64,000 nucleotides of DNA from an uncultured Planctomycetaceae bacterium (GCA_964631565.1 CAZVYJ010000001.1:12705-76704), one strand, 5' to 3'; positions 14,305-31,345 are shown, counted from the first letter of the stretch. A program made the numbers and translations. Notes: generated by a model not told the origin, from the sequence alone.

Positions 14305-14737
14305 TGGCGTCAGGCAGTGTTTCGACGAATGCGCGTATTTCGTCCCTGACGCGGCGGTAACAATTGAGAATCTCTTCTTCACTGTCGGCGGACTCAGCCA
14401 GCTTTGGGGGGTCGTCGAAGCCGACGTGAATCACGCGAACGCTGCCCGGGAAAACCGGGCAGTGCTCGTTTGCATGTCCGCACAATGTCACCACGCAGTC
14501 GAATTTCACGCCGGCCAGCTCGTCGACGTGCTTGGACCGCTGGGCCGATATGTCCACGCCCGCCTCGGCCATCACCTTCACCGCCCGCCCGTTCATGCCG
14601 TGCGTCTCGATGCCGGCCGAGTACGCCTCCAGGCAGTCGCCCTTGAGCTTCCTCGCCCAGCCCTCGGCCATCTGGCTGCGGCAGGAGTTGCCTGTGCAGA
14701 GAAACAGGATTTTCGTTTTTTTCTTACGTTCATTCAT
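14291..14737 (-). CDS. arsC: arsenate reductase, thioredoxin-coupled LMW-PTP family
   Basis: [27 protein letters not shown] (CX5R P-loop) and [15 protein letters not shown] (second/third Cys). ORF-track start at 14800 overlaps arsM, so the internal ATG is used; ATG at 14755 is an alternative. Confidence 0.85.
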
Positions 14738-14756
14738 CAGTTCACCACGAGTCATG

Positions 14757-15518
14757 CTATCGCAATGCCAGCACGGTAATGGAGGCGGCTGCGCCGGCAT
14801 TCGGGGCGGTTATCGGATCATCACAGGAATTGGACGCCTTGTAGGTATGGTCGCTGAGTATTTCCATTTTATCGAAGCCGGCGTCGCGGATAGCCTGCAG
14901 ATACTCATCCCGCAGCATCGCGCCGGCGATGCAGGCGGCGTAGAGGTCGGCGTCATTGTGGGCCGACTCCGGCAGCGGCCGGTTCAGCACGATGTCGCTG
15001 ACGATCATCCGCCCGCCGGGCTTCAGCACGCGGTAGACCTCACGGAATACCTGCGGTTTGTCCGGCGAGAGGTTGATGACGCAGTTGGAGATCACCACGT
15101 CCACGGAGGCGTCATCCACAGGCAGGTGCTCGATATGTCCTTCCCGGAACTCGACGTTGGCCAGACCAGTTGTCGTGAAGAACCTGACGGCATTTTTGCG
15201 GGCCAGTTCAAGCATCTCCGGTGTCATGTCCACGCCAATCGCCCGGCCTTCGTCGCCGACCTTATGGGCGGCCAGGAATACGTCCTTGCCTGCTCCGCTG
15301 CCGAGGTCCAGCACCACGTCGCCCTTGTTGATGTACCCGAACGCCAGCGGATTGCCGCACGACAGGCCCAGCTCCGACTCGGGCACGGGATGGTCGCTCA
15401 CGGTGTAGGCCTTGTCGTCGCAGCAGCAGGAGCTTTTCGAATCGCAGCATGAGGATTGCTTGCGGGCGACTTCGCCGTAAGCCTTCCGGACCAGTTCATG
15501 CGTTTTGTTTTTGGACAT
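14757..15518 (-). CDS. arsM: arsenite S-adenosylmethionine methyltransferase
   Basis: SAM motif [13 protein letters not shown]. Cys-rich N-terminus [23 protein letters not shown]. Typical ArsM length. Confidence 0.85.
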
Positions 15519-15541: not shown

Positions 15542-16750
<1,209 letters not shown>

Positions 16751-16834
16751 ATCGCCAACCTTTCCTCTTCAGTGCGTCGGGAGTCGCCGGTGCGGAGAAA
16801 TCGGGATTTTAAACTTATCGCTCATGGTTTTTCC

Positions 16835-17206
16835 TCAGCAGGTTTTGTAATGCCTGCACAGTTCTTTGCGTGTCATCTTCCGGACGCATTTGAGTTTTTT
16901 GGCGTCTTCGCGAACGCGGCTGTCCTTGGCCAAGCATTCAATCGCCGCCGCCAAGATGGCGCGTACGCAAGGCGGGTCCGGTTTCTCGGTCAGGCTATAG
17001 TAAATCCACCGGCCGTCCTTGCGTGTTTCGACCAGGCCCGCCTGGTGCAGAATGGCCATATGCTTCGAGACAGTCGAGGGGGCCAGCTCCAGCAGCTCGA
17101 TGATCTGGCAGACGCACAGCTCACCGCCCGTAAGGGCCATCAAAGCCCGCACGCGGCCTTCGTCCGACAATGCTTTGGTGACAGTCAGAAACTCTCGCAC
17201 TTTCAT
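16835..17206 (-). CDS. arsR: ArsR/SmtB family metalloregulatory repressor
   Basis: wHTH domain with ELCVCQI metal(loid)-binding motif. RBS cggaga. First gene of arsR-acr3-arsM-arsC. Confidence 0.85.
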   Translation of the reverse strand: MKVREFLTVTKALSDEGRVRALMALTGGELCVCQIIELLELAPSTVSKHMAILHQAGLVETRKDGRWIYYSLTEKPDPPCVRAILAAAIECLAKDSRVREDAKKLKCVRKMTRKELCRHYKTC

Positions 17207-17231
17207 TCTCCGTTACTTCGCCATATAACGA

Positions 17232-17259
17232 ATTATAGACGCCCGCAGCCGGACGTCAA
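17232..17259 (-). promoter_or_regulatory. sigma70-like promoter (TTGACG-16 nt-TATAAT) for the arsR-acr3-arsM-arsC operon
   Basis: Minus-strand reading ttgacgtccggctgcgggcgtctataat ends ~25 nt upstream of the arsR ATG. Confidence 0.55.
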
Positions 17260-17333
17260 CGATAATTCATGATTTTTTCAGGACGGTCGCCGCCCGGTCT
17301 TCCGGATGCGGTCTTTCATTTTTTTTGCGTCCG

Positions 17334-18197
17334 CTATCTCAGAGCCGGGATCAGCAGCACCGGCACGGGCGCATGGCGGGCGACGTTGTGGCTGACGCTG
17401 CCCAGGAACACTTCGCCGAAGAAACCGCGTCCCTGGCTGCCCATGACGACCAGAGAGATATCGCCCCGGCGAGTGCGGCGGAGGATTTCCTCTGCGGGCA
17501 GGCCGTATGGCAGCTCGATCTGAACATCCTGCACACCCGTACCGGCCAGTGCTTCTTTCATCCGCTCCAGCCGCTCGCCGTCAATGGCGTTGAACTCTTC
17601 CAGTCGCTCTTTGAGATGGCGGTCGATCTTCGTGCGATCCTGGACGTGCATCAGGACAACCGACTTTACGCCGCCGACCAGCTTCCGGACGGTCTGGAAT
17701 GCATGCTCGGCGTTTTCCGAGAAATCCGTCGGGAACAGTACGCGGTCCGGGGAGGCCAGCGGACATTCTCGCCGACAATCCTTGTCCTCATGGATGCGTG
17801 CAACCAGCAGCGGCAGTCGGCAGCTGTGCAGCACATCTCCAGCCGCGCCGCCCAGGAACACCTCGCCGGCCAGACTGTGTACTCTCGATCCGATGACAAC
17901 AAGGTCGCAGTCTTTGTCCTTGGCGGCGCGGGTCACTTCCACGCGAGGGTCGCCCAGAAGAACTTCAGCGTCGGCCGTATAGCCCTGCGTTTCGAGTATC
18001 TTTCGGCAGCGGTCGAGATCGCCCTTGAGGATGTTTTCGACATTGGCCCGGACGCCTTGAACCTCGTGGAGGCGAAGGCAAAACGCCAGGACGACATGGT
18101 CGACGCCCAGGCTGCGCAGGCCGACCTTGCACTGGAGGAACTTCTCAGACGGCTCGCTGAGGTCCGACACGATCAACGCCTTCTTGAATATGCTCAT
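17334..18197 (-). CDS. tandem universal stress protein (2x UspA domain)
   Basis: Internal start MSIFKKALIVSDLSE (ORF-track 5-prime extension to 19001 overlaps the neighbouring gene and is rejected). Two Usp repeats; VVMGSQGRGFFGEVFLGSVSHNVARHAPVPVLLI is the classic UspA C-terminus. Confidence 0.8.
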   Translation of the reverse strand: MSIFKKALIVSDLSEPSEKFLQCKVGLRSLGVDHVVLAFCLRLHEVQGVRANVENILKGDLDRCRKILETQGYTADAEVLLGDPRVEVTRAAKDKDCDLVVIGSRVHSLAGEVFLGGAAGDVLHSCRLPLLVARIHEDKDCRRECPLASPDRVLFPTDFSENAEHAFQTVRKLVGGVKSVVLMHVQDRTKIDRHLKERLEEFNAIDGERLERMKEALAGTGVQDVQIELPYGLPAEEILRRTRRGDISLVVMGSQGRGFFGEVFLGSVSHNVARHAPVPVLLIPALR

Positions 18198-18217
18198 GCT
18201 CCGCCTCTCTCTCGGAA

Positions 18218-18928
18218 TCACAGCCTCAATCCATAGATGTGCGTCAGCGTGTAGTAGACGCCTACCGCGACGAAGATAATGCCGGTGATCAACCTGAACC
18301 ACCGTTCGATCATGGTCATGGCGCTGAACGCCTTGCCTACGTACTGGCTGGCGAAGGCGATGACCAGGGCGAAGGCGATAACCGGCACGGCTGTACCGAT
18401 GCCGTAGGCCACCGGCGGCAAAACCGTTGAGCCGTGCTCCAGCGAGATCACCAAGGCGCTGAGGAACAGGGCGATCGACGGCGGGCAGAAGGCCAGGGCG
18501 AACAGGATGCCCAGAGGCAAGGCCCAGATTGCGCCGCCCTTGGCGATGCGTTCCTGGAGCTTCGAGCCGCCAACGCCGATGGAGATGTTCAACTCGATCA
18601 GTCCGAGCAGGATCATTCCGATGAACAGCAGGGCCGGCCCCAAGGCCAGGTTCCCGTAATGCTGAAGGCCTCGGGAGGTCGGGCTGGCGTACTCCTTCAG
18701 GCTTCCCGCACCGCCGGTGGCGGCCTGAAACGCCCAGAGCAGCGCCACTCCCAGCCCCACATAGACCAGCGTGCGGCCGAGCGTGTACAGCGCGGCCGAC
18801 AGCAGCACACGCTTGGAGTTGCCGACGTTGCGGCTGAGAAACGAAATCGCCGCGATGTTCGTCGCCAGCGGACACGGGCTGACCGCCGTCAGCAGCCCGA
18901 ACCAGAAGACGCCCGCAAGGACCGCCAT
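18218..18928 (-). CDS. CcdA/DsbD-family transmembrane thiol-disulfide electron transporter (ArsG-like)
   Basis: Six TM helices with the SPCPL motif. GTG at 18937 would give GTGA overlap with the upstream stop; ATG at 18928 is used here. Confidence 0.75.
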   Translation of the reverse strand: MAVLAGVFWFGLLTAVSPCPLATNIAAISFLSRNVGNSKRVLLSAALYTLGRTLVYVGLGVALLWAFQAATGGAGSLKEYASPTSRGLQHYGNLALGPALLFIGMILLGLIELNISIGVGGSKLQERIAKGGAIWALPLGILFALAFCPPSIALFLSALVISLEHGSTVLPPVAYGIGTAVPVIAFALVIAFASQYVGKAFSAMTMIERWFRLITGIIFVAVGVYYTLTHIYGLRL

Positions 18929-18933
18929 GAAAC

Positions 18934-19404
18934 TCACTTGCCGCCTCCTTCCATGGCGGAGCGAATGCCCGTCCGCAGGTAGTCGGTGAGCCGGTCGGCA
19001 TTCGAGGCCAGTTCCATCACCTCATCCAGTCGCACGCGGGAGACCTCCTTGCCGTCCTCGAACCGCACTGCGATGACCATGTTTTCGCCGACGTTGTACT
19101 TGTCGGCCAGCGCTGCGTTCTCAGGCTCCAGGTAGTTCAGAGAGACGAATTCCATCGTGCCGGCGGCGACCGCTTCGGCGAACTCCTCTCGCACCAGTTT
19201 CTCAGCCGTCGTTTCGATGAAGGTGCAGGTTACGCAGGGAATGCCGTGCATGTAGTAGACCACGACTTTATTCTCGCCCGGCGCAACTGCCGGCTCCGGC
19301 GGGGCGGGAGCGTTGCGTAAGGCAATTTCCTTGCCGACGGCCACGCCGATGCTGACCAGCAGAAACGCCGTCAACAACTTGCCGATGATCTTCTTGAGCT
19401 TCAT
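18934..19404 (-). CDS. small exported CxxC protein (CVTC), paralog of 20414-20872; possible ArsF-family
   Basis: aaggag RBS. Signal anchor MKLKKIIGKLLTAFLLVSIGVAVG. VVVYYMHGIPCVTCTFIE motif shared with the paralog (VIVYYMHRTYRCPACREME). Confidence 0.6.
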   Translation of the reverse strand: MKLKKIIGKLLTAFLLVSIGVAVGKEIALRNAPAPPEPAVAPGENKVVVYYMHGIPCVTCTFIETTAEKLVREEFAEAVAAGTMEFVSLNYLEPENAALADKYNVGENMVIAVRFEDGKEVSRVRLDEVMELASNADRLTDYLRTGIRSAMEGGGK

Positions 19405-19413
19405 AGGGACTCC

Positions 19414-20364
19414 TTACTTCACGCCCATTTCCGCCATCTTCTTCTCCAACTCCTCCTGGGGCCAGAAACCGGTGTGGCGGAAAGCCTCCTTGCCGCTCGC
19501 GTCAAAGAAGATTTGCACCGGGATGGACTGGATTCCGTAGCGAGCGGCTAGTATCTGCTCCTCGCGCACGGACACGAAGATGACGTTCGCCTTGCCATCG
19601 TACTTTTTCTTCAGGGTCTCCAGGATGGGCGCCAGCATGTCGCAAGGCCGGCATCCCTTGGAACCGAAGTCCACCAGCGAGGGCTTGCCACTGGCGCGGG
19701 CCTTGTCCACCGGATTGTCCATCGCCAGTTCGGCCTGATGCTTCAGCCAAGGCGCGGCGACCTCAATAGTGACCCGCTGGCCGAGGGTCTGTATGTGCTT
19801 GTCCACGATCTCCTGTTGTTTCTGCTGCCGCAGAAACTTGGCGATGGCGTCCTTGACATCCGCCAGTTTACGGTCCCCAATCATATCTTTATTCTTCTCG
19901 TAGAACTCGGCCACCTCGGCGTCCGTGACCTTTACATCCGCAGTGAGCTTGTCAAAATACGCCTTGAGTAATTCCTGCTCGGAGAGCCCGGAGGTGTCCT
20001 TGCCTTCCTTGGCCGCGGCTGCCTTGGCTTCCGCAGCCAGCAGTTGCCGCGTGGCCATCTGCTCCAGCAGGAAGAAGGCGTTCTTGCGGAGTTGCTCACG
20101 CACGGTTTCCGGGGCCTTGGCGATCTCGGCATCAACGTCTTTCTGTGTAACCTTCAGATCATCGGCTTGCAGCAGGACGCCGTCTGGCAATTCCATCGGC
20201 CGGGCATGGACCAGAGCGGCGGACGCAAGATTAGGATAAACGTCCGACACGGACTTCGACTTCTCATCCTGTGCGGAACTCGGTTGCGTGGTCGCATCTT
20301 GCGCCAAAGCGCACGAAGCCATGAAGCCTATGGCGACTGCAGATATCATCAAACGAATAATCAT
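19414..20364 (-). CDS. periplasmic thioredoxin (CRPC) fused to an N-terminal SurA/PpiD-like chaperone-type domain
   Basis: Internal start MIIRLMISAVAIGFMASCALA (signal peptide). C-terminal LVDFGSKGCRPCDMLAPI is a thioredoxin fold. The N-terminal ~200 aa are helical, Lys/Glu-rich and SurA_N-like. Confidence 0.65.
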   Translation of the reverse strand: MIIRLMISAVAIGFMASCALAQDATTQPSSAQDEKSKSVSDVYPNLASAALVHARPMELPDGVLLQADDLKVTQKDVDAEIAKAPETVREQLRKNAFFLLEQMATRQLLAAEAKAAAAKEGKDTSGLSEQELLKAYFDKLTADVKVTDAEVAEFYEKNKDMIGDRKLADVKDAIAKFLRQQKQQEIVDKHIQTLGQRVTIEVAAPWLKHQAELAMDNPVDKARASGKPSLVDFGSKGCRPCDMLAPILETLKKKYDGKANVIFVSVREEQILAARYGIQSIPVQIFFDASGKEAFRHTGFWPQEELEKKMAEMGVK

Positions 20365-20413
20365 GGTAAAATACTCCCGCCAGCCGGAGGCTGACTTTAT
20401 TAAACTCGGCACG

Positions 20414-20872
20414 TCAGTTTGCTTTATCCAGGCGATCACGAATCGCCCCTGCGACGTACGCCTCAAATTCATCTGGTTTTTTATATAAATTCCATGTCTC
20501 TTCGAGTACTTCGTGCGATACCTCTTTTCCGTCGCGATATGAAACCAGAACCAATGAACTGGTGTTCAGTTCGTATCGCTCGGCTATATCTTCGTGCTCC
20601 TGGTAATTCAGGACTTGCCACTGCACTTTCCCCGAAGCCAACTCGTTGGCGAACTTGTCCTGGACCACGTAGTGGGCCATTTCTTCCATCTCCCGACACG
20701 CGGGGCAGCGGTATGTCCGGTGCATGTAATAAACAATGACACTGTTGGATGGAGCGGCTGCGCCTGAATCGCCGGCCTTGCCGGAATTCCCGGAATCTGA
20801 TGTCTCCGTCGCACAGCTGGTCAGCATCATGCCGAACAGTCCAAAGATCGCCGCCTTAACCAATACTTTCAT
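20414..20872 (-). CDS. small CxxC lipoprotein (CPAC), paralog of 18934-19404
   Basis: Lipobox MKVLVKAAIFGLFGMMLTSC and YYMHRTYRCPACREMEEMAHYV. Confidence 0.6.
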   Translation of the reverse strand: MKVLVKAAIFGLFGMMLTSCATETSDSGNSGKAGDSGAAAPSNSVIVYYMHRTYRCPACREMEEMAHYVVQDKFANELASGKVQWQVLNYQEHEDIAERYELNTSSLVLVSYRDGKEVSHEVLEETWNLYKKPDEFEAYVAGAIRDRLDKAN

Positions 20873-20916
20873 GGTTTGTCTCTTTCTTGTTTGTTAACAA
20901 AGTGTTTACCTGGCGA

Positions 20917-21525
20917 TTACTCGCTGCCTTCGGGTTCCGCGCCGCCGAAGTCGTAGCCAAGTTCTTTCCACTTGGCGAGGATATCCTCTTTGCTCAGGAA
21001 ATTCTCATGCCGCCAGAGTTCCTTGCCGCCGGCGTCAAAGAATATCTGCGTCGGAATCGTCTCGATGTTGTATTTCCTGGCAAGGTCGGCGTTTTCCCGA
21101 AGCCCGACATCGATGAACTCCACGTCGAACTTGCCGGCGTAGTCTTTTTTCAGTTCCTCCAGTATCGGGGCCATCATCTTGCATGGAATGCAAGTCTTGG
21201 AACCGAGGTCAACCAGCTTGGGCAAGCCGTTTGTCTCGGTTGCGGCCTTGCCGTTTGGATTATCTGCCTCACCGCATCCGATTATCTGGGCGCCGACAAT
21301 CACCCCAGTAATGCCGGCCAGAAGCATCGCAATTAGTCCGATTTTACAGAATTTACGCATTTTATTTGTTCCTTCCGCATTCCATGTCGCCTTTGTCCAC
21401 TTGACCGCCTGCCACAGCCCAAATATCAGGGCGAACAACATCAGCCAGCCGAACTGGCCCATTCCGCCGCCCGAGCCGCCGTCACCGCCACCGCTGCACG
21501 GGCATTGTGCCAACAGGCGGATCAT
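20917..21525 (-). CDS. membrane-anchored thioredoxin-family protein (CIPC)
   Basis: ATGA overlap with the upstream stop supports the start at 21525. Two hydrophobic segments, then LVDLGSKTCIPCKMMAPILEEL...IPTQIFFDAGGKE (thioredoxin fold). Confidence 0.7.
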   Translation of the reverse strand: MIRLLAQCPCSGGGDGGSGGGMGQFGWLMLFALIFGLWQAVKWTKATWNAEGTNKMRKFCKIGLIAMLLAGITGVIVGAQIIGCGEADNPNGKAATETNGLPKLVDLGSKTCIPCKMMAPILEELKKDYAGKFDVEFIDVGLRENADLARKYNIETIPTQIFFDAGGKELWRHENFLSKEDILAKWKELGYDFGGAEPEGSE

Positions 21526-21755
21526 GCCAGCATCGCCTTGATGGCCTCGGCGTCGGGCACCTTGCCTACGACCTTCACCACGCCGTCCACGGCCAGCGCG
21601 GGCGTCATCATCACGCCGAACTTCATGATCTCGTTGATGTCCGTGATCTTCTCGATGGCGTATTCGATGCCCAGCGCCTTGGCGGCGGCTTCGGCATTCT
21701 CCGCGAGTTTTTTACACTTGGGGCACCCGGTGCCCAGTATCTGCAACTTCTTCAT
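21522..21755 (-). CDS. small thioredoxin-like redox-active disulfide protein (77 aa, CPKC)
   Basis: MKKLQILGTGCPKCKKL...MMTPALAVDGVVKVVGKVP is the MTH895/TM0996-type small thioredoxin commonly found next to ArsP-type permeases. Confidence 0.8.
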   Translation of the reverse strand: MKKLQILGTGCPKCKKLAENAEAAAKALGIEYAIEKITDINEIMKFGVMMTPALAVDGVVKVVGKVPDAEAIKAMLA

Positions 21756-21758
21756 CTC

Positions 21759-22190
21759 TTACGCTCCAGTTCGTAAATGGTTTAATATTTCCAAAGCCTT
21801 GACGACGACCTTCTGTGCCTGCTCGCTGGTGCAGCGGACACCCTTGATCTTCTCGATGCCGAGGTCGGTTACTCTGACATGTTTATAATTGTTAATTCCG
21901 TGGCGGTCGAATGTCTTTTTCGCGCAGTCCATGGGGCAGCCGTCGATCACCATGTTCACGTCGGCGTCGCGGGCGGTCTGCACCATGCCTTGTATGTCGC
22001 CGCCCAGCCCGGCCAGGCAGAACATCGCGCCTTCGCCGGCGAAGGCCAGCTCTCTCGCAGCCTTGTCGGCAATTTCACCCACATTCGCACTGCCGGAGCA
22101 GGCGTACAAAAGGACAACCTTGCCCGCGTCGCTCCCGCAGCAGCAGGATGCTTCATTGGTCGGTTTCGGGATTCCACAGCAGTCGCTCAT
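21759..22190 (-). CDS. DGC-domain putative zinc-binding protein
   Basis: Cys-rich N-terminus SDCCGIPKPTNEASCCCGS and the diagnostic VIDGCPMDCAKK motif. Confidence 0.7.
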   Translation of the reverse strand: MSDCCGIPKPTNEASCCCGSDAGKVVLLYACSGSANVGEIADKAARELAFAGEGAMFCLAGLGGDIQGMVQTARDADVNMVIDGCPMDCAKKTFDRHGINNYKHVRVTDLGIEKIKGVRCTSEQAQKVVVKALEILNHLRTGA

Positions 22191-22191
22191 A

Positions 22192-23022
22192 TCATTGCTC
22201 CTGTTCTAGGGGTTCTGGTCGGGCCGAGTTCTTGGATGCCGGGCCATTCGTATCTTGAAGGCAGTTCTTATTGACCACATCGCCGCGCCGGCCTCTGTGT
22301 TCGTACGAATCCGGCGTCCAGTGAAAGTCTTTCAGGATGCTGACCGCAAAGCATTCTTCGGGTGGGGCATTCAGCAGACGCCTGGCATAGTCCCATTCCA
22401 TGCGCTGGCAAAGCCGCATCTCCTCCAGCGTGCACCCACCGGAGCGGATCTTCTCTTCCAGGGCGAGCACCTCAGCCGGAAAGACACCGGCCTTCAGCGA
22501 TACTTTGACGGTCTTGCCCGTCGAGAAACGGTGCAGGATGAACTCGTTGCCCAGCGCCGGGTCGATCTTCTGCGTGCCAAACCGGACTCTCCCGCCTGTC
22601 AGGTATGCGGCCACATCCCCATAGCACGGCGAATTGTTCGTGATGCAGCCAGTATCGGTCCGGTCTATAATGCCATCGGGATACAGAGCATTCAGGCCCA
22701 CGGACATGGCACATGCGGCTGTGACTAGGCCGTCGCACGGATGGCCATGCATCTTGACCAGGTCCTTCAGCGTGATTGTCTTCGTTTCGGAGACGTAGGG
22801 GCCGAGGCTGCTCTCCGTGTCCCTGACGTGGAACACCGGCGCGTACTGGCCCCTGGCCATCCAGTCGAAATAGTACCACGTAGGGCTGTTATCCATCGAC
22901 TCCGTCGTCTTCATTGTGCCGCCGGAGCGGTCCGTACAACCGGCAAGGCAAGCTGCTTCCATTGCGAATGCAAGGGTCGCCACAGCCCCCACAACGACAT
23001 GATGTCTGTTGATACAACTCAT
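22192..23022 (-). CDS. FmdE/FwdE-domain lipoprotein
   Basis: Internal start MSCINRHHVVVGAVATLAFAMEAACLAGC (lipobox), with ATGA overlap to the RND stop. HGHPCDGL motif of the FwdE family. ORF-track extension to 23418 rejected. Confidence 0.55.
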   Translation of the reverse strand: MSCINRHHVVVGAVATLAFAMEAACLAGCTDRSGGTMKTTESMDNSPTWYYFDWMARGQYAPVFHVRDTESSLGPYVSETKTITLKDLVKMHGHPCDGLVTAACAMSVGLNALYPDGIIDRTDTGCITNNSPCYGDVAAYLTGGRVRFGTQKIDPALGNEFILHRFSTGKTVKVSLKAGVFPAEVLALEEKIRSGGCTLEEMRLCQRMEWDYARRLLNAPPEECFAVSILKDFHWTPDSYEHRGRRGDVVNKNCLQDTNGPASKNSARPEPLEQEQ

Positions 23023-26000
23023 TCGGCTGTCTCTTTCTGCGGTTGCGGACGCAAACCAAGCAGCCAGCGACCGGTGGCCGCCGCCTTGACGGTCACGGTG
23101 TCCAAGCTCGAGTACACCACCGGGATGACGATCATGGTCAGGAAGGTGCCGACGGCCAGACCGGTGGCTGCCACGATGCCCAGCGGACTCATACGTTCCA
23201 GGCCAACCGCCATCTGGAAGACCAGCGGCGTCAATCCGACGATCGTCGAGACGGTCGTCATCAGGATCGGGCGAATCCTCAGGCGAACGGACTGGAGGAT
23301 CGCCTCGTCCTTGGTCACTCCGGCCTTGCGGGCGTTGAGGACGAAATCCAGCAGCAGGATGCTGTTGTTGACGATGGTTCCGCCCAGGAAGATCATGCCC
23401 ATCGTCGCCGGTTTGCACATCGGTTTGTCGAACAGCAGCAGGCCCCAGAAGGCTCCGGCGATGGCCAGCGGAATGGCGGCCATGATCGTCACGGGATGCG
23501 CGAACGATTTGAACATGGCCACTAGGAGGATGTACAACAGCACGAAGCCGATCATCAGGGCCTTGCCCATTTCGGCACTGCCGGTTTTCATGTCGGCCGT
23601 TGTGCCGGAAACATCGATGGTGTACCCGGCGGGGGGATGGATGGCCTCCAACCGCTTCGTGGCCATGCCCGCAATCTGGCCGATGGTATAGACGCGGTTG
23701 ACGCCTGTAATGTCGATGGTGTTACACAGCCGCTCGCGGGTAATGAAGGGTTGGTTTCGCTGCGGATTCAGCGTCGCCATCGCTCGCACAGGCAAGGGGC
23801 CAAACCGCGTCGAAACATACGCGTCGGAGAGCTGCGCCGGTTCGCTGATGTTCTCGGAGGCGTACTGCACGGTAATAGGAATGTCCAGATAGCCTTTGAG
23901 GCGCATGGGCGAGGCCGGGATGCCCTTTACGATGCCCTTGAGTTCCCAGGCAAGGTCGGCCGGCGTGGTCTGATAGAGTTTCGCCAGAGCAGGATCGACG
24001 TCCACGTGATATTCGGTCTTGTCGAAGTACCAACTCCGGCGAACGTCCATCAAGCCGGATAGTCCCTTAAGCGCGTTTCGGCACTGGTCGGCCAGTTGGC
24101 TGACTACATGAGAATCAGGCCCGCTGACGATGATGTCCAACGGAGCGCGGGTTGTGGAGACCGGTGTGGCCCCGTACTCGGTGATTCGAAAGCTCCGCAC
24201 GCCCGCAATCTGCCGCAACTGCTCTCGCCACTTATCCTGGATTTGCCAGATCGTTTCTGGCCTGTGCTGGCGATCCACCAGGTGAATGATGATCTTGCCC
24301 GACTGGGCGGTGGCGCCGCCTCCGCCGAAGCTGATCTGCCCGGGCTCCGACCCTACGATAGACGAGATGGTTTCCACGCCGGGCTGTTTATAGACGGCCG
24401 TTTCGATCTGGCTGAGCGTTTTCTCGACCTCGGCCGGAGATGCGTCGGTCGGCGCGTCGAACTCCAGATTGACGATGCCCGTGTCCATCGGCGGCATGAG
24501 TTCTCCGCCGATCAAAGGCTTGACCACCTTCATGGTCACGATGAAGAACGCCGCCGCGAGGATCAGCGTGGCCAACCGCCACCGCAGAGCTCTTCGCAGA
24601 ATACTCAGGAAGAACCGCGACAGCAGGCCGACCCCTTTGTCCGTGTTGGCGAATAGACGCTCCAGGAAGTTCCTGTGTTCATGCGGCCGAGCCAACAGAC
24701 GTGATGCCATCAGAGGCACAACCGTCAACGAGACCAGCAAAGAGGCCACCAAGGTAGCCGAGATCATCATGTTCAACGGCCGCATCGTCTGCTGGGAATA
24801 GCCACCGGTGAACATCACGGGAATCAGCACGATGACCGTCGTGAGCATGCCCGCCGTCACGGCCAGGGCGACTTCACTCGTTCCTTGCTTGGCCGCTAGG
24901 GCTGCGTCGGGATGCTTCATCTCGCGGTAGTGCCGGTAGATGTTCTCCAGAACGACGATGGAGGCGTCCACCACCATTCCCACCGAGATGATCAGACCGG
25001 AGAGCGTCACCATGTTCAGCGTGTACGGGCTGAACCACAGCACGACCAGGCCGGCCAGAAACGCCAGCGGGATGCTCACGGAAACAACTACGGCCGCCCG
25101 CATGTCGGCCAAAAAGAAGAAGATCACGAGTACGGTCAGGACCACCGCCTGCCATAGGGAGCTGCGCATGCCGTTGACGTTCAGGTCGATGAGGGGCTGC
25201 TGGTCGTCGGTGATCTGAAAAGCGATGTCAGGGTATTGGGCCTCAAGCTTGGGCAGGAAACTCTTGATGCTCTGGATGGCGCTGACCGTCGGACCGTTAT
25301 CGGGCCGCATGACATTGACGGCGATGGCCGGCTTTCCGTTGCCGTGATAGACGCTGCGCTGCTCCGCTTCGCCCAGGCTGACGTTGGCTACATCCTCTAG
25401 GCGGAGCCAACCCTGGTCGGAGTGCTTGATCGGCAGTTGACGGATCTGCTCAAGGTCAGCGAACTCACCGATTGTCTTGACCAGGTATTCCCGTCGCTCC
25501 GAATAGATCGTGCCGGCCGGGGCCGATACGTTCTGTTTCGCCAGAGAAGCGACCACCTCATTGATCGACAAGCCGTTAGCAGCAAGGCGATCCCGGTCCA
25601 CCCGCACCTTCACTTCAGGCTGATGGCCGCCGAATACGTCCACGTCGGCGACGCCTGGCAGCGTCAGGATCTGGTCCTCGATCTGGTTCTCGGCCAGGAG
25701 GCGAATCTGCGACAGTGTCTTGGTGCTGCCGGGCTTGGGCGACAGGGCCAGTGTCAACAGCGGCCGTGTCGCATCGGTGATTTTGTAGATACGAGGTTCC
25801 AGGATGTCCTTGGGCAGTTGGGCCCGGATTCGGCCGATGGCGTTCTGCACGTCCAGGACCGCCTCGCCGATCGGTTTGCTGTAATCGAACTCGGCGTTTA
25901 CGGAGGATACCTCGTCGCGGCTGGTGCTGGTGACCTTGGCCAGCCCGCCGAGGGTGTTCAGTTCCTTCTCGACGACTTGGGTGATCTTGTCGGCTACATC

Positions 26001-26150
26001 GCCAGCGTCCGCGCCCGGATATACGGTGATGACGACCACCTGGGGCGGAACCGTGTTGGGGAATAAGTCTGTGGGAATCTTAATGAAGGCGAAAAAACCC
26101 AGCGCAACCACCACCAGCACCAGGGCGATGATCACGAACGGATTCCTCAT
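23019..26150 (-). CDS. RND efflux transporter permease subunit (AcrB/CzcA superfamily)
   Basis: Start MRNPFVIIALVLVVVALGFF 17 nt after the MFP stop. 12-TM topology with two large periplasmic loops. Proton-relay motif VGMVVDASIVVLENIY in TM4. Confidence 0.9.
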   Translation of the reverse strand: MRNPFVIIALVLVVVALGFFAFIKIPTDLFPNTVPPQVVVITVYPGADAGDVADKITQVVEKELNTLGGLAKVTSTSRDEVSSVNAEFDYSKPIGEAVLDVQNAIGRIRAQLPKDILEPRIYKITDATRPLLTLALSPKPGSTKTLSQIRLLAENQIEDQILTLPGVADVDVFGGHQPEVKVRVDRDRLAANGLSINEVVASLAKQNVSAPAGTIYSERREYLVKTIGEFADLEQIRQLPIKHSDQGWLRLEDVANVSLGEAEQRSVYHGNGKPAIAVNVMRPDNGPTVSAIQSIKSFLPKLEAQYPDIAFQITDDQQPLIDLNVNGMRSSLWQAVVLTVLVIFFFLADMRAAVVVSVSIPLAFLAGLVVLWFSPYTLNMVTLSGLIISVGMVVDASIVVLENIYRHYREMKHPDAALAAKQGTSEVALAVTAGMLTTVIVLIPVMFTGGYSQQTMRPLNMMISATLVASLLVSLTVVPLMASRLLARPHEHRNFLERLFANTDKGVGLLSRFFLSILRRALRWRLATLILAAAFFIVTMKVVKPLIGGELMPPMDTGIVNLEFDAPTDASPAEVEKTLSQIETAVYKQPGVETISSIVGSEPGQISFGGGGATAQSGKIIIHLVDRQHRPETIWQIQDKWREQLRQIAGVRSFRITEYGATPVSTTRAPLDIIVSGPDSHVVSQLADQCRNALKGLSGLMDVRRSWYFDKTEYHVDVDPALAKLYQTTPADLAWELKGIVKGIPASPMRLKGYLDIPITVQYASENISEPAQLSDAYVSTRFGPLPVRAMATLNPQRNQPFITRERLCNTIDITGVNRVYTIGQIAGMATKRLEAIHPPAGYTIDVSGTTADMKTGSAEMGKALMIGFVLLYILLVAMFKSFAHPVTIMAAIPLAIAGAFWGLLLFDKPMCKPATMGMIFLGGTIVNNSILLLDFVLNARKAGVTKDEAILQSVRLRIRPILMTTVSTIVGLTPLVFQMAVGLERMSPLGIVAATGLAVGTFLTMIVIPVVYSSLDTVTVKAAATGRWLLGLRPQPQKETAE

Positions 26151-26167
26151 GGAAAAGCCGATGAGAT

Positions 26168-27355
26168 TCACTTCATGGCCTCCACCTTGAGTCCCGCCGA
26201 CAGCTGCACCCAACCCAGGAACGTGCTCAGGACGACTTGGTCGCCTTCTCGCACGCCCTCGACGGCCACGTCGTCACCATCCGCGCCCAGAACGCTCACC
26301 GGTCTGGCGCGCAGATGCTCATCGTTGACAATGAACACAAACGTCTTGCAGTCTGGCGATTCGACCACGCTGGAAGATGGGACCAGCGTGACATTCATTC
26401 TGGAACTCAGCACCACCTTCAGGCTCATATAGGCTCCGCAAGACAGGCCCTCCGCTTCGGGACCGTCGAGGTAGACTTCCGCCCGAAGCATGCGCGCGGT
26501 GCTCAGCGAGGGGAACATGTGCGACAGCACTGCCGTCCGGCCCTTGCTGGCAACGGAGAAGCTTACCGGCAGCCCCTCATGAACCTGCGGCAGATCCTGC
26601 TGGGGTACATCGAAGCAGAGCTTGAACTTGCTGCGGTCCTCGACGGTCATCAGGCTCTTGCCGGGGGTCGCCAGATCGCCGGGGTCCACCATGCGATGCG
26701 ACACCAGGCCGTCAAATGGGCTGCGAATCGTGCAGTAGCCCAGCGTCGTCTCCAACTCGGCCTGCTTGCGTTTCAGGGCCTCGATCTGCCGCTCGATGGC
26801 GGCAGACTTCTGGCGAGCGGCGTCCAGTTTGCCTTGGGCCTCATTGGCTTTGTCGGCCGTGCCCTCAGCTTGCGCCCCGGGGATCGCGCCTTTGTCGGCA
26901 AGCTCCTTGTCTCGTTGTCGCTCCCGCTGCCAGTAAGCACTGGTCTTCGCCAATGATTCCACGGTCGCCTGATTGGAGGCCAGGTCGGCCTGGGCCTGCT
27001 CGACTTGCGCCTTGGCGGCAGCAATGCTGTCCTCAATCTGTCGCCCGTCGAGAATCACAAGGATGTCGCCGGCCTTTACTGCCTCGTTTTCGTCGTGCAG
27101 GACCTTCTCAACCGTAGCCGTCAGACGGGCCGAGACATCCGCCAAGCGGATCGGCTCCACCACGCCCAGATAGTCACGCGTTTGTTGCAGATTGCCCTGG
27201 CGAGCCGTCGCAACGCGAACCGGGACTGGCTGCATGCCGTACTTCGGAGCTGCAGCCAACGCCAGCTTCTTGTGCCGGACCAGCAGGAGGCCGCCAACCA
27301 CGATCAGCCCAACCACCGCCAGTACGATTACGATGCGAATGCTTTTCTTGACCAT
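26168..27355 (-). CDS. RND efflux periplasmic adaptor (membrane fusion protein, HlyD family)
   Basis: Internal start MVKKSIRIVIVLAVVGLIVVGG overlapping the OMF stop by 1 nt. Coiled-coil hairpin, lipoyl and beta-barrel segments. ORF-track 5-prime extension rejected. Confidence 0.85.
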   Translation of the reverse strand: MVKKSIRIVIVLAVVGLIVVGGLLLVRHKKLALAAAPKYGMQPVPVRVATARQGNLQQTRDYLGVVEPIRLADVSARLTATVEKVLHDENEAVKAGDILVILDGRQIEDSIAAAKAQVEQAQADLASNQATVESLAKTSAYWQRERQRDKELADKGAIPGAQAEGTADKANEAQGKLDAARQKSAAIERQIEALKRKQAELETTLGYCTIRSPFDGLVSHRMVDPGDLATPGKSLMTVEDRSKFKLCFDVPQQDLPQVHEGLPVSFSVASKGRTAVLSHMFPSLSTARMLRAEVYLDGPEAEGLSCGAYMSLKVVLSSRMNVTLVPSSSVVESPDCKTFVFIVNDEHLRARPVSVLGADGDDVAVEGVREGDQVVLSTFLGWVQLSAGLKVEAMK

Positions 27356-28761
27356 TACTGCCGCGCTCCTATCGCCAGTTTCAACTGGGCCAGGGCGACG
27401 TTGTAGTCGGCCAGCGCCCGGTAGTAGTTGGTCTGCGAGTCCAGCAGGGCCGACTGCGCGTCCAGAACGTCCACGATCGCGCCCTTGCCCAGGTCGTACT
27501 TCTCGCGCTCGATCCGCAGGCTTTCCTTGGCCTGTTCGATAGCTGTTTCCGTGGCCTTGACTCGCTCCCTGGCCGAGCCGACATTCAGCACGGCCGTCTC
27601 CACGTCGAGCTGAATCTGAAGTTCCAATTGCCGCAATCGCTCTTGAGCGGCCATGAGACGGGCCTTCTCTTGGCGAATTCTCGCCTCGATTCGTCCGCCT
27701 TCGAAAATGGGGATATCCACCACGACGCCTACCCGGCCTACGTCGCCAGAACTGTCCGTCCCGGAAGGCCGATCCGTCGTACCGGCGGCCCAACGGCCAC
27801 CGTATGCGCCCTCCAGCGAAACTGTCGGCCACTGCGCCGCCCGTGCGGCGTCCACGGCCTTGGCCTGAGCCTCCAACTCCGCACGGGCCGCAAGGTAGTC
27901 GGATCTGCCGTTGAAAGCCTGACTCAGGGCTTGAGCGGTTTCGGGGATGGCAGCTTCGGCAATCGCCAGTTCGCCGGCGGGGTCAACCGGCTTGTCCGGC
28001 CGATCCAAACCCAGCAGGTTCGTCAGCACGCGGGCCTGGACGGCAAGCACGTTGCGCTCCCGCACAAGCTGCTGGTCCAGGTTGGCCACGCGGACCTCCG
28101 TGCGTAGCTGGTCCACCTTGGCCGCCTTCTGCGCCGCGATCAGGTCCTCGATGCGTTTGAGGTGCTCCTGGAGCGCCTTCTTTGAAAACTCCAGCGATTC
28201 GATGACCTCCCGTTGGGCCAGGATGCCATAGAACACGCTAGAGACGTTGAAGACCAGTTCCTCCTGCGTCCGGGCGAGGCGGTGCTCCGACGCCTTCTGG
28301 AGCAACTCTGCCGCCTTGATCTCACTGGTGATCCGCCCGCCGGTGAACAGGGGCATGGTCACCACCAGATCGCCGGCGAATATGTCCCGGCTGAATGCGC
28401 CCGATTGGTTATTCTCGCTCGCCGCGATCAATCGCTGGCTGTCCAGGTAGTGATTGTATCCGCCAATGGCGTGCAGGCTGGGCAGGCGCTGTCCTGCGGC
28501 AAAGTCGCGCTGCGCCGTCGCCGCGGCCACGTCATACACTGTGGCGGCAACTTCCGGGTTGTTGGCCAAGGCCACGCGAACGGCCTCATTCAAAGTCAGC
28601 GGACCCTGAACCGGTTGGGTGGCTGCGGAATGGGGGCCGCCGAGATAAGGACGCGGGCCTCGCCCCATGCCCGCGTATGGGTCGGTCGGATTGGTCAGCA
28701 CGCACCCCGGAGCTAGAGCCGCAAGGGCGACCAGCCAGAATGTCTTCATCGGGGTATTCAT
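27355..28761 (-). CDS. TolC/OprM-family outer membrane efflux protein
   Basis: Lipoprotein-like signal LAALAPGC. Two tandem repeats with long coiled coils. C-terminal DVLDAQSALLDSQTNYYRALADYNVALAQL is typical of OMF proteins. Confidence 0.85.
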   Translation of the reverse strand: MNTPMKTFWLVALAALAPGCVLTNPTDPYAGMGRGPRPYLGGPHSAATQPVQGPLTLNEAVRVALANNPEVAATVYDVAAATAQRDFAAGQRLPSLHAIGGYNHYLDSQRLIAASENNQSGAFSRDIFAGDLVVTMPLFTGGRITSEIKAAELLQKASEHRLARTQEELVFNVSSVFYGILAQREVIESLEFSKKALQEHLKRIEDLIAAQKAAKVDQLRTEVRVANLDQQLVRERNVLAVQARVLTNLLGLDRPDKPVDPAGELAIAEAAIPETAQALSQAFNGRSDYLAARAELEAQAKAVDAARAAQWPTVSLEGAYGGRWAAGTTDRPSGTDSSGDVGRVGVVVDIPIFEGGRIEARIRQEKARLMAAQERLRQLELQIQLDVETAVLNVGSARERVKATETAIEQAKESLRIEREKYDLGKGAIVDVLDAQSALLDSQTNYYRALADYNVALAQLKLAIGARQ

Positions 28762-28765
28762 AGGC

Positions 28766-30310
28766 TTACAGGAACGCTCCGAAAATCATGCCGGAGATCG
28801 TGGCCATCACGATCACCAGCGAACAGTACACGATGGTCTTCTGCGTGCCCATGATGCTGCGTATGACCAGCATGTTCGGCAGCGACAGCGCAGGCCCCGC
28901 CAGCAGCAGCGCCAGAGCCGGTCCTTTGCCCATGCCCGCGCCGATCAGGCCCTGGAGGATGGGCACCTCGGTCAGTGTGGCGAAATACATGAATGCGCCG
29001 AAGACGCTGGCGAACAAATTTGTCCATATCGGCCAGACGGAACGCACGACGCTCTCGAAGGCGCCGCCGCCCCAGCCGGTCATCTCCAGCATGCGATTGG
29101 GACTGTCGCCGACGAGCGACTCGACGTATCTGCTCGGAATGAAGCCTTCATGGTCCGGTCGACCCAGCAGGAAACCCGCCACCAGCACTCCGAAGAACAG
29201 CAGCGGGAGTATCTGCTTGGCGAAGGTCCACGTGGCGGCGAACCAGTCGCCTCCCTCGCCCTTGTTGGTGCTGAGAATGACCGACAGGCCGACAATCGCG
29301 GCCGAGAACGGAATAAGCACCCACAAATCCTTGTTTATCGGCAAGACAAAAGCCAGGATAGCCGGCGGAATCGCCGCAAGCACGACCTTCCACCAGTGAA
29401 CCTTGAACCAGAAGATCAGGATCAGGGAGAAGGCCGCGGCGAACCCAGCCGTGACCAGCCATTTGTTCCGCCAGATCGAAGTCCATACGCCGGGAAGCGG
29501 GGTTCTTTCCACAATGTCGGCTGAGTTGAGAGTGATTTCCTCGCCCTCATCCGGTCCTTCCAGCAGCTTCACCCGGTAGGCAGCGCCGGCTGCGGCTGCG
29601 TCTTCCGGGGCCTTGGTGATGGCCGCCCTCATCTCTGTGCCGTCATTGAGCTTGAAATACCAATCGTTGGGCGCTCCCCAGTTGGCGAAGACAAGAATGC
29701 CGATCATGACAAAGAAGAACAGGGCGTTGTGCGTCAGCGGCCGCGTTACTTCAGGTTCCGGCATTCCCAGTTGGCCGTTGGCCTTGGCAATCTCCTCCTT
29801 GCGGTAGATGAAGTGCATGATCAGGCCGATTATCACGCTGAACGATATTGCGCCGACCGCGCGAGCTATTCCCAGTTCCAGTCCGAGGATGCGGGCGGTA
29901 AGGATTATCGCCAGCACGTTGATGGCCGGGCCGGAGTACAGGAACGCCGTCGCCGGGCCAAGCCCGGCGCCCATCCGCCAGATGCCCGCGAACAGAGGCA
30001 GCACGGTGCAGGAGCAGACGGCCAGTATCGAACCCGATACGCTCGCCACGCCATACGCCAGCACCTTGTTGGCCTTGGCCCCGAGGTACTTCATCACCGA
30101 CGCCTGGCTGACAAACACGCCGATGGCCCCGGCGATGAAGAACGCCGGCACCAGGCACAACAGCACATGCTCCCGCGCGTACCACTTGGCCAGGTGCAGT
30201 GCCTCCATGACGCCCCAGTTAAATCGGTCCCAGTTCACGGGCAGCCAAAAGAACACTATGAATACAACAAGCATCAACAACGGGGTTTTTATCGTATTTT
30301 TTACGCTCAT
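28766..30310 (-). CDS. DUF318/ArsP-type permease with ~150-aa soluble insertion
   Basis: ATGA overlap with the arsR stop (ATG at 30310; ORF-track start 30319 is GTG). Polytopic protein with the AVCSCTVLPLFAG Cys motif resembling the ArsP TPFcSCS region. Confidence 0.6.
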   Translation of the reverse strand: MSVKNTIKTPLLMLVVFIVFFWLPVNWDRFNWGVMEALHLAKWYAREHVLLCLVPAFFIAGAIGVFVSQASVMKYLGAKANKVLAYGVASVSGSILAVCSCTVLPLFAGIWRMGAGLGPATAFLYSGPAINVLAIILTARILGLELGIARAVGAISFSVIIGLIMHFIYRKEEIAKANGQLGMPEPEVTRPLTHNALFFFVMIGILVFANWGAPNDWYFKLNDGTEMRAAITKAPEDAAAAGAAYRVKLLEGPDEGEEITLNSADIVERTPLPGVWTSIWRNKWLVTAGFAAAFSLILIFWFKVHWWKVVLAAIPPAILAFVLPINKDLWVLIPFSAAIVGLSVILSTNKGEGGDWFAATWTFAKQILPLLFFGVLVAGFLLGRPDHEGFIPSRYVESLVGDSPNRMLEMTGWGGGAFESVVRSVWPIWTNLFASVFGAFMYFATLTEVPILQGLIGAGMGKGPALALLLAGPALSLPNMLVIRSIMGTQKTIVYCSLVIVMATISGMIFGAFL

Positions 30311-30639
30311 TTGCAGCACTCGCTGAGAATGGCTTTTTCACCGTCTATCCGTTCGCGGAGCACGTCGGTCACGCAGTCGAGGAATCGCAGCAGGCAGGCC
30401 GTCCGCAGCGAGTAGAGCATTTTGAGGCCTTCCTTGCGGTAATCGATTACGCCGGCCTTAAGCAGGACGGCCAGGTGACGCGACACGTTGGACCTCTGAG
30501 CGCCGACGTGCGCCGCGATGTCGCAGACGCACTGCTCGCCGTCGCACAGGAATTCGATTATCGCCAGGCGTATCGGGTGGCCGGCCGCCGCGATTATCTC
30601 CGCCTTCAGCTTCAACAGCTTCTTCGTTGCAGAATCCAT
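30307..30639 (-). CDS. arsR: ArsR/SmtB family transcriptional repressor (second copy)
   Basis: IRLAIIEFLCDGEQCVCDIAAHVGAQRSNVSRHLAVLLKAGV (wHTH) with CVCD metalloid-binding pair and C-terminal ECCK. First gene of the 14-gene operon. Confidence 0.85.
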   Translation of the reverse strand: MDSATKKLLKLKAEIIAAAGHPIRLAIIEFLCDGEQCVCDIAAHVGAQRSNVSRHLAVLLKAGVIDYRKEGLKMLYSLRTACLLRFLDCVTDVLRERIDGEKAILSECCK

Positions 30640-30699
30640 TTCAACACCTCAAACACGTTGAACGAAACGACCAGCAAACCCAAAAACAGGCTCCAATAA

Positions 30700-30770
30700 C
30701 TATGTGAGTATTTAGTAACATAGTAACGCATGACAATGGTGTTTTCAAGTTCGAAGGAGATAAAAAAATG
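30700..30770 (-). promoter_or_regulatory. candidate promoter/ArsR operator of the 14-gene operon (direct repeat TAGTAAC-A-TAGTAAC overlapping a -10-like TACTAT)
   Basis: Minus strand reads ttgaaaacaccattgtcatgcgttactatgttactaaatac (TTGAAA-17 nt-TACTAT). The repeat sits on the -10, as expected for a repressor operator. Placement is approximate. Confidence 0.35.
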
Positions 30771-30813
30771 GGATTTTTGCCTTTGAAAAATATATCTGAT
30801 ATTTCTCTGTGTC

Positions 30814-31335: not shown

Positions 31336-31345
31336 GTGACCAACC

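Follow-up and report, generated by a model that had tools for sequence, protein, structure and literature searches.

Can a permease of the inner membrane and an envelope-spanning efflux pump, encoded together under an arsenic-type repressor, form one export route from the cytoplasm to the outside of the cell? This question is raised by a block of six minus-strand genes (30639-22192) in a 64,000-nucleotide stretch of DNA from an uncultured Planctomycetaceae bacterium (GCA_964631565.1 CAZVYJ010000001.1:12705-76704), referred to here at its full length as the window, with positions counted from its first letter. The genes encode, in order, an ArsR repressor, a DUF318/ArsP_1 permease, an outer-membrane factor (OMF), a periplasmic adaptor (membrane fusion protein, MFP), a resistance-nodulation-division (RND) pump and an FmdE-family lipoprotein. 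The original prediction, made from this sequence, was of two-step export, with the permease delivering a compound to the periplasm and the RND system carrying it onward. Comparison with related loci indicates that the linkage of permease and pump is recurrent. We favor, with middling confidence, the reading that the operon would detoxify a trivalent, thiol-reactive metalloid by exporting it across both membranes, the probable substrates being (organo)arsenicals such as methylarsenite.

A 14-gene ArsR-controlled operon

The six genes are the promoter-proximal half of a 14-gene ArsR-controlled operon of ~13.4 kb on the minus strand (30748-17334). The front of this operon comprises the following features.

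30720..30748, minus strand: promoter-like site P1 (TTGAAA-17 nt-TACTAT), sigma-70-like, upstream of arsR1
30699..30724, no strand assigned: imperfect 12-2-12 inverted repeat, putative ArsR operator (arms 30699-30710 and 30713-30724, 83% complementary)
30307..30639, minus strand: arsR1, ArsR/SmtB repressor, 110 aa (NF033788, 79.6 bits, cutoff 55)
28766..30310, minus strand: long-form DUF318/ArsP_1 permease, 514 aa (PF03773, 213.4 bits against 32.3, profile positions 5-293 of 294)
27355..28761, minus strand: OMF (TolC/OEP family), 468 aa (PF02321, 227.7 bits)
26168..27355, minus strand: MFP, 395 aa, with an N-terminal membrane anchor (TIGR01730, 157 bits, cutoff 94.9)
23019..26171, minus strand: RND inner-membrane pump of "type A," 1050 aa, GTG start (PF00873, 656 bits)
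22192..23022, minus strand: FmdE-family lipoprotein, 276 aa, lipobox LAGC with Cys29 (PF02663, 55 bits against 22.9)

Sequence and profile matches bear out the predicted gene order, coordinates and junctions, with one correction. The arsR and permease genes overlap in ATGA, the permease and OMF genes are separated by a 4-nt gap (TAA GCCT ATG), the OMF and MFP genes share 1 nt (TAATG), and the GTG start of the RND gene overlaps the MFP stop (GTGA). The correction concerns the last junction: the FmdE gene had been described as coupled to the RND start, but it is the FmdE start that overlaps the RND stop codon (ATGA). All junctions from arsR to FmdE are therefore overlapping or at most 4 nt. Many homologues of each of the six genes, with 55-90% identity, occur in other assemblies, which marks the six as real genes.

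Beyond 22192 the operon continues through eight further genes, with gaps of at most 49 nt, to the end of a universal stress protein gene at 17334.

21759..22190, minus strand: DGC-domain protein, 143 aa, with a Cys-rich N terminus (CC...CCC) (profile match)
21522..21755, minus strand: Thioredoxin_3 (Trx_3)/MTH895-ArsE family protein, 77 aa, CPKC, cytoplasmic (TIGR00412, 106 bits, cutoff 62)
20917..21525, minus strand: membrane-anchored or lipoprotein thioredoxin, CIPC, alternative start 21360 (profile match)
20414..20872, minus strand: ArsF-family thioredoxin-like lipoprotein, CPAC (NF040494, 95 bits, cutoff 60)
19414..20364, minus strand: secreted protein with a C-terminal thioredoxin domain (CRPC) and weak N-terminal peptidyl-prolyl isomerase similarity (SurA-N/thioredoxin protein)
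18934..19404, minus strand: second ArsF-family protein, CVTC, membrane-anchored (71 bits, cutoff 60)
18218..18937, minus strand: ArsG-family/DsbD_2 (CcdA-like) membrane protein with two Pro-Cys motifs (NF040495, 225.6 bits, cutoff 200)
17334..18197, minus strand: tandem universal stress protein, last gene of the unit

Head-to-tail with this operon lies a second unit, arsR2-acr3-arsM-arsC (17259-14291), and the two together form a 16.4-kb arsenic island. Matches in a terminator scan all fell within coding regions and are uninformative on the operon ends, and a search of Rfam returned zero RNA elements in the region. The promoter scan of 14000-31400 gave five promoter-like sites, a number not above the shuffled control (mean 5.1). 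Three are on the minus strand: two overlapping sites precede arsR1, the better at 30748-30720, and one precedes arsR2.

The inverted repeat at 30699-30724 overlaps the -10 box of P1. ArsR1 contains an HTH_5 domain with Cys37-Val-Cys39 (CVC) in helix 3, together with Cys82 and Cys89; among 68 extracted rows, which include some extracted wrongly, each of the four positions is Cys in 53-59. Cys32 and the C-terminal Cys-Cys were also considered as sensor residues and were ruled out, as they are not conserved.

Related loci in other genomes

We compared 80 species-representative loci that carry the long form of the permease, annotated by tblastn with the window's own proteins as the only queries; genes absent from the window are visible only at loci with precomputed Pfam tables. 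An OMF or RND module adjoins the permease at 14 of the 80 loci (8 of the 43 for which at least 6 kb of downstream sequence is available). Over all loci examined, three RND lineages can be told apart, with mutual identities of 25-42%, and they stand in several gene orders. Because three lineages and several orders are involved, this comparison of neighborhoods indicates that the permease-RND linkage is recurrent, having arisen with at least three pump lineages, and is therefore not accidental. Recurrent linkage is what functional coupling predicts.

The type-A RND lies beside the permease at L006 (86%), at L058 (71%) and in the window. A second lineage, type B, which is 25-28% identical to type A, occupies this place at L003, L013, L014, L025, L035, L052 and L073. 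The OMF beside the permease remains 48-65% identical across type-A and type-B loci while the MFP-RND pairs are 25-28% identical, which suggests that the MFP-RND pair was replaced in place and the OMF channel kept. The third lineage (42% identical) is found at L084, in the order ArsR-OEP-MFP-RND-FmdE-short ArsP_1-Trx3-DsbD. On this 947-kb contig (positions 5825-6562 and 10958-11934), a Y1 transposase gene lies between the MFP and RND genes, and the gene calls split both the RND and the short permease in two.

Homologues of the type-A RND with 67-89% identity include proteins from metagenome-assembled genomes (MAGs) labeled Desulfobacterales, Kiritimatiellaeota and Alphaproteobacteria and from the isolate Desulfosarcina sp. 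BuS5. Such high identity across differently labeled genomes suggests that this pump spread horizontally. Nine type-A contexts were sampled. Two place the pump directly after an ArsP_1 permease: ArsP_1-OEP-MFP-RND-Trx3 in a Kiritimatiellaeota genome (L087) and ArsP_1-OEP-MFP-RND-DGC-TrmO_N-Trx3-Trx-...-DsbD_2 at L093. Others read ArsR...FmdE-FmdE-TauE-OEP-MFP-RND-DUF1805 (L086), ArsR-MFP-RND (L094), ArsR-TetR-OEP-MFP-RND (a JGI contig) and MFS-MFP-RND near DsrE/TusA/rhodanese genes (L085).

The constant core of the related loci is ArsR-permease-Trx3, often joined by DGC, a membrane thioredoxin, ArsF, ArsG and the SurA-N/thioredoxin protein. After ArsR, the permease has its most constant neighbor in Trx_3 (65 of 88 loci), and small plasmid-borne relatives again show the order ArsR-(Trx3)-permease, one of them adjoining arsD and arsA. 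At 28 of the 80 loci, acr3, arsC or arsM lies no more than 10 kb away (12 of the 30 loci flanked by at least 6 kb on each side); ars genes are often placed between permease and Trx3, as at L024, L033, L036, L049 and L064. The system is widespread in anoxic-sediment Planctomycetota (Phycisphaerae/Sedimentisphaerales), and its components occur in MAGs labeled Kiritimatiellaeota, Desulfobacterales, Lentisphaerae, Acidobacteria and others.

The FmdE-family lipoprotein had been suggested as a possible periplasmic substrate-handling partner. Its homologue at L081 stands in the same order as in the window and that at L035 follows a type-B RND. Those at L072 and L097 lie inside permease/Trx3/DGC/DsbD clusters that have no RND, and the one at L083 accompanies TauE and an Acr3-like gene. 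A role as strict RND partner is weakened by these contexts, three of eight being RND-free: the FmdE protein is tied to the permease/thiol-redox module no less than to the pump. The operon at L081 is near-identical to the window's; one of its products (12887-14170) matches both thioredoxin and the organomercurial lyase MerB, and the locus also has a DUF4405 gene and a flavodoxin_2 gene that are absent from the window.

Component proteins and neighboring genes

The permease was recognized in the original prediction as ArsP-type, and this stands on both its PF03773 match, well above the gathering score, and an invariant Cys-Ser-Cys (C99-S100-C101), which lies in a membrane segment and is unchanged in 46 aligned homologues. 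Scores against the NCBIfam equivalogs SO_0444 (97.7 bits, cutoff 300) and SaoE (94.3 bits, cutoff 325) place it in neither. The long form is abundant: the best 120 of at least 8000 matches are almost all 490-531 aa, and the few of these 120 that are named by source carry Sedimentisphaerales, Phycisphaerae or Planctomycetota labels. A GTDB scan with the permease returned 368 coding stretches.

Hydropathy predicts ~13 helices for the permease. An insertion of ~150 aa, described earlier as soluble, proved right in length but only partly so in character. Relative to the Pfam model it spans about residues 196-347 and comprises TM6, a hydrophilic five-strand beta domain of only 55-70 aa and three more transmembrane (TM) helices, four predicted TM helices in all. 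The AlphaFold2 model is poor in the membrane core (predicted local distance difference test [pLDDT] 53, predicted TM-score [pTM] 0.39) and confident in the insertion (75-88), where it shows the five beta strands. Among permease relatives, the hydrophilic stretch alone is missing at L067, L074, L075, L077 and L079, and two of the insertion helices are missing at L066 and L087.

The tripartite system is complete, as predicted: OMF, MFP and a 12-TM RND are contiguous and overlapping, and each matches its profile. We aligned the RND with CusA, AcrB, MdtB and MdtC of Escherichia coli. In this alignment the residues of the CusA triad, M573/M623/M672, correspond to E, S and T, and the CusA relay residues E939/K984 to N and I. 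TM4 has a single Asp (VDAS), not Asp-Asp; Asn-Asn in TM10 stands at the position of Lys940 in AcrB and Glu939 in CusA, and an Arg971-like residue is kept. Profile scores are 344.9 bits for the heavy-metal efflux family HME (TIGR00914, cutoff 701), 376 bits for the hydrophobe/amphiphile efflux family HAE-1 (TIGR00915, cutoff 940) and 600 bits for RND_permease_2 (cutoff 1250). The closest solved structure is MdtB (336 bits, 26% identity), and CusA falls outside the best 60. Type A and type B occupy separate deep branches of a neighbor-joining tree, and each is 22-26% identical over its full length to the E. coli references.

The choice between HME and HAE clades, and the presence of a CusA-like Met cluster, had been left to be checked. 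An HME assignment is ruled out by the missing Met triad and the score below the TIGR00914 cutoff, and an ordinary HAE-1 assignment by the lack of Asp-Asp and Lys940 and by scores below the cutoffs, so the pump has no Met cluster, yet it is not an ordinary HAE-1 protein. From these alignments, the window RND is a deep separate lineage with an invariant Met/Cys signature. Of 118 type-A sequences, 117-118 keep each of M559, M562, M918, C919 and M924. M559 and M562 (ELMPPMDTG) are located just past TM7, at the TM7-PC1 junction, and M918, C919 and M924 (FDKPMCKPATMG) in a loop aligned with the periplasm-facing TM9-TM10 loop of AcrB. This signature would be compatible with a soft ligand.

The HGHPCDG motif reported for the lipoprotein is present at residues 92-98, and a lipobox was found. 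His92, His94, Cys96 and Cys133 are invariant in 44 sequences and correspond to the Zn/Ni ligands of a solved FmdE protein, where His15, His17, Cys19 and Cys55 bind the metal tetrahedrally (PMC2954224); according to the authors of that structure, most family members adjoin metal transporters. The AlphaFold2 model (pLDDT 82) gives Foldseek matches solely to 2gvi, 3d00 and 2glz (probability 1.0). A periplasmic metal(loid)-binding role is thus plausible, judging from the conserved site and the modeled fold. Several metagenomic proteins (P0126-P0129, P0146, P0152; L097 9001-10113) are fusions of an FmdE homologue with DUF1805 (PF08827), and in Desulfosarcina sp. BuS5 the type-A RND is followed by a standalone DUF1805 gene (L086 13157-13537).

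Downstream, the open reading frame of the secreted SurA-N/thioredoxin protein reaches 20472, and its start is probably 20364; the GTG start of arsG overlaps the stop of the second arsF. Assignment of the DUF318 permease itself as ArsG was considered and ruled out, as the match to the ArsG model is the DsbD_2 protein. With CxxC motifs on both sides of the membrane and two Pro-Cys motifs in the DsbD_2 protein, the ArsE/F/G set resembles a transmembrane reductant relay of the CcdA type more than it does a nitroreductase with an efflux permease. Most of 40 DGC homologues from related loci show a CC or CxC pair at the N terminus. In the window, the DGC protein (MSDCCG...SCCCG) and ArsM both start with a CC...CCC cysteine cluster.

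The second ars unit consists of a promoter-like site and four genes.

17232..17259, minus strand: promoter-like site P2 (TTGACG-16 nt-TATAAT), 11/12 matches, before the second unit
16835..17206, minus strand: arsR2, with an ELCVCQI motif
15542..16750, minus strand: ACR3 arsenite efflux transporter (TIGR00832, 382 bits, cutoff 283)
14757..15518, minus strand: ArsM arsenite methyltransferase (NF008823, 300 bits, cutoff 263)
14291..14755, minus strand: thioredoxin-type arsenate reductase ArsC, start uncertain (14755 or 14737; 160 bits, below the cutoff of 174)

Past this unit, on the plus strand (10146-14304), three tandem paralogous genes encode secreted proteins of ~450-470 aa with weak DUF4139 similarity, one of them above the Pfam cutoff; the paralogues at 11594-12946 and 12943-14304 are near-identical by eye and overlap by 4 nt. 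At the other end of the island, a TrmO_N (UPF0066) gene (30830-31335, minus strand) lies directly upstream of the arsR promoter. A frameshift near 31200 splits it, and it is either a pseudogene or the result of an assembly error. TrmO_N homologues 57-62% identical to it occur within the permease clusters of five other loci, mostly straight after the permease (L036, L038, L041, L054 and L093), and on the opposite strand at L009. FmdE-UPF0066 fusions are mentioned in the FmdE structure paper (PMC2954224).

Export route, substrate and known systems

Arsenicals are favored as the substrate because of the adjoining acr3-arsM-arsC genes, the interleaving of ars genes at related loci and the matches to the ArsE/F/G models. 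The arsenic link of the original prediction has accordingly gained ground, with a second ars unit next door, arsEFG-type genes in the operon itself and ars genes at 28 of the 80 related loci.

In the mechanism that we favor, ArsR1 would sit on the 12-2-12 repeat over the -10 box and be released when a metalloid binds its conserved cysteines. The long permease with its invariant Cys-Ser-Cys would, as its family suggests, move the compound from cytoplasm to periplasm. MFP-RND-OMF would then take it at the periplasmic face and expel it through the outer membrane, as the recurrent linkage suggests, with the invariant Met/Cys residues at the TM7-PC1 junction and in the TM9-TM10 loop as candidate entry ligands. 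The FmdE lipoprotein, through a solvent-exposed His2Cys2 site, may bind the substrate in the periplasm or hand it over. To judge from motifs and predicted compartments, Trx_3 (ArsE), the CcdA-like ArsG and the four extracytoplasmic CxxC proteins could relay reducing power across the membrane, keeping envelope thiols reduced or freeing metalloid-thiol adducts, and the DGC protein, with its N-terminal Cys pair, might act as a cytoplasmic buffer or chaperone of the compound. The arsR2-acr3-arsM-arsC unit identified above would handle inorganic arsenic and make methylated species for export; the product of ArsM, methylarsenite, is the shown substrate of ArsP (PMC6205960).

Several observations weigh against this reading. 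About 83% of the permease's relatives have no neighboring RND, which makes the pump an optional add-on; the constant partners of the permease are ArsR, Trx_3, DGC and periplasmic thioredoxins, not RND, which is present at ~17% of related loci. Just one RND-bearing permease locus in the sample (L025) has acr3 or arsM within 10 kb, and the type-A RND occurs outside any ars or DUF318 context at L085, L088 and L092. The permease is far from every curated family, the nearest curated names being for Cu/Zn efflux, and with 514 aa and ~13 predicted TM helices it departs from the ~300 aa of classical members and from a compact size of 300-350 aa. FmdE sites carry Zn/Ni in crystals, not arsenic. Two-step export stands in part: recurrence with three RND lineages, in several orders and phyla, makes it the simplest reading, but the RND is found at only ~17% of loci. 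The same division applies to the FmdE protein as substrate handler, whose His2Cys2 site is kept but which is found as often with the permease/thiol-redox module as with an RND.

The alternative that survives best, though we consider it unlikely, keeps the two-step architecture and replaces the substrate by a soft metal cation (Cu(I), Zn, Cd, Hg or similar). The DUF318 permease would then be an analogue of the inner-membrane exporter in CopA plus CusCFBA or ZntA/CzcP plus CzcCBA, and the FmdE protein would be CusF-like. The MFP does match CzcB-type barrel-sandwich models, the near-identical operon at L081 has a thioredoxin-MerB fusion, and the CVC motif of ArsR/SmtB proteins is found in Cd/Pb sensors as well. 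The families nearest to the permease, the SO_0444 Cu/Zn efflux transporters and SaoE, annotated as "metal efflux," have the Cys-Ser-Cys motif in common (10.1101/2022.07.06.499078), and the FmdE His2Cys2 site binds Zn/Ni in crystals, in a family whose genes are often beside metal transporters (PMC2954224). Set against these points are an RND that has no CusA Met triad and scores 345 bits where the HME cutoff is 701, and an operon with no P-type ATPase, cation diffusion facilitator (CDF) or metallochaperone gene. The ArsE/F/G-family models are passed, and it is acr3, arsC and arsM, rather than cop, czc or mer genes, that show the strong and recurring association.

It is less probable still that the RND, inserted into an ars-type operon, serves general purposes (multidrug, solvent or envelope stress) and is co-expressed with the permease while having no common substrate with it. 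Three RND lineages each stand beside DUF318, FmdE and Trx3 genes, in several orders and phyla; start/stop codon overlaps flank the module on both sides; ArsR-family regulators recur beside the type-A RND even where the permease is absent; and the lineage shows an invariant Met/Cys signature but not the Asp-Asp/Lys940 relay of HAE-1 proteins. Such an insertion would nonetheless explain why ~83% of related loci have no RND, why its closest solved or curated relatives are multidrug proteins (MdtB, 336 bits; RND_permease_2, 600 bits) and why the same lineage occurs with TetR, Crp or MFS neighbors and no DUF318. The 79% identity with a Desulfobacterales protein, across phyla, also suggests a mobile cassette.

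We regard as quite improbable a reactive sulfur or selenium substrate (persulfide, polysulfide, sulfite or selenide), with ArsR as a thiol-based persulfide sensor and the thioredoxin relay as the main actor. This would fit the many CxxC proteins on both membrane sides, the CcdA-like protein and the TauE, rhodanese, DsrE/TusA and Tso genes that adjoin homologues of the type-A RND and of FmdE in genomes of Desulfobacterales and others. A match of ArsR1 to BigR is weak, and at 37 bits is far under the cutoff of 155; no sulfur-oxidation gene (sqr, pdo, rhodanese) lies in or beside the window operon; and bona fide ars genes are the neighbors here and at 28 of the 80 loci. Last, a permease that is an importer, or a Cys-pair electron or thiol carrier working with Trx_3, would mean no two-step export; the constancy of Trx_3 (65 of 88 loci, and on plasmids too) speaks for it, but we think it very improbable given that electron transfer already has its own CcdA/DsbD_2-type carrier in the ArsG-family protein, and given the export function of characterized family members (PMC6205960) and a co-transcription with an efflux pump, under a derepressible ArsR, that fits export.

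If the export of a metalloid across both membranes is correct, a recurrent ArsR-controlled permease and RND module would add an outer-membrane step to arsenic efflux, would offer a first clue to the function of two or three unclassified RND lineages and would hint at a task in the periplasm for the enigmatic FmdE fold. ArsEFG would be re-read as a transmembrane thiol-redox relay, and the wide distribution of the system would make it relevant to arsenic cycling in sulfidic habitats. To our knowledge, arsenic resistance in diderms has been described as export to the periplasm alone (Acr3, ArsB, ArsP and others), and our literature search found no account that places an RND system within an ars operon or links one to a DUF318 permease. 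That this is the first dedicated whole-envelope exporter of trivalent (organo- or thio-)arsenicals, made up of a DUF318 permease, a hitherto unclassified RND lineage with a Met/Cys entry site, an FmdE periplasmic metalloid chaperone and ArsEFG as a CcdA-type relay, is possible, although doubtful.

Among characterized proteins, ArsP is an efflux permease for methylarsenite (MAs(III)) and trivalent roxarsone (Rox(III)), as shown experimentally (PMC6205960). The window permease resembles Campylobacter jejuni ArsP in its Pfam ArsP_1 match (213 bits), in a vicinal Cys-x-Cys in a membrane helix and in a gene placed after ArsR in an arsenic cluster. It differs in its 514 aa, its ~13 predicted helices and beta domain and its apparent co-transcription with a tripartite RND. 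The short plasmid "permease" genes that we retrieved are ~29-35% identical to it. SO_0444 and SaoE are its best-scoring curated families and have the Cys-Ser-Cys in common with it, but it remains far below their cutoffs and has no SAO or selenoprotein context. With MdtB/MdtC-type and other HAE-1 pumps, the window RND has the full-length ACR_tran architecture in common; its single TM4 Asp, Asn-Asn at Lys940 and scores of about half the cutoffs set it apart.

The FmdE family (PF02663; 2glz, 2gvi, 3d00) has the fold and the FHGHxC...C metal ligands of the window protein, which is distinguished by its export, its lipid anchor (lipobox), ~60 extra N-terminal and ~50 extra C-terminal residues, absence of a zinc ribbon and location within an efflux/thiol-redox operon. 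As in ArsEFG of Shewanella putrefaciens, known to us through NCBIfam names and citations, the Trx_3, two ArsF and DsbD_2 proteins pass the ArsE, ArsF and ArsG models; unlike that set, they share their operon with an RND pump, a DUF318 permease, DGC and two more thioredoxins of the periplasm.

Cooperation between an inner-membrane exporter and an RND system is well known for Cu, Zn and drugs. The closest parallels to the window operon as a whole are CopA with CusCFBA and ZntA/CzcP/CzcD with CzcCBA, which likewise combine an inner-membrane exporter, an RND-MFP-OMF pump and a small periplasmic metal-binding protein. Here, the first step would be taken by a DUF318 permease rather than a P-type ATPase or CDF protein and is encoded in the same operon as the pump; the RND is not of the HME family, and the candidate chaperone has the FmdE fold in place of the OB-fold of CusF.

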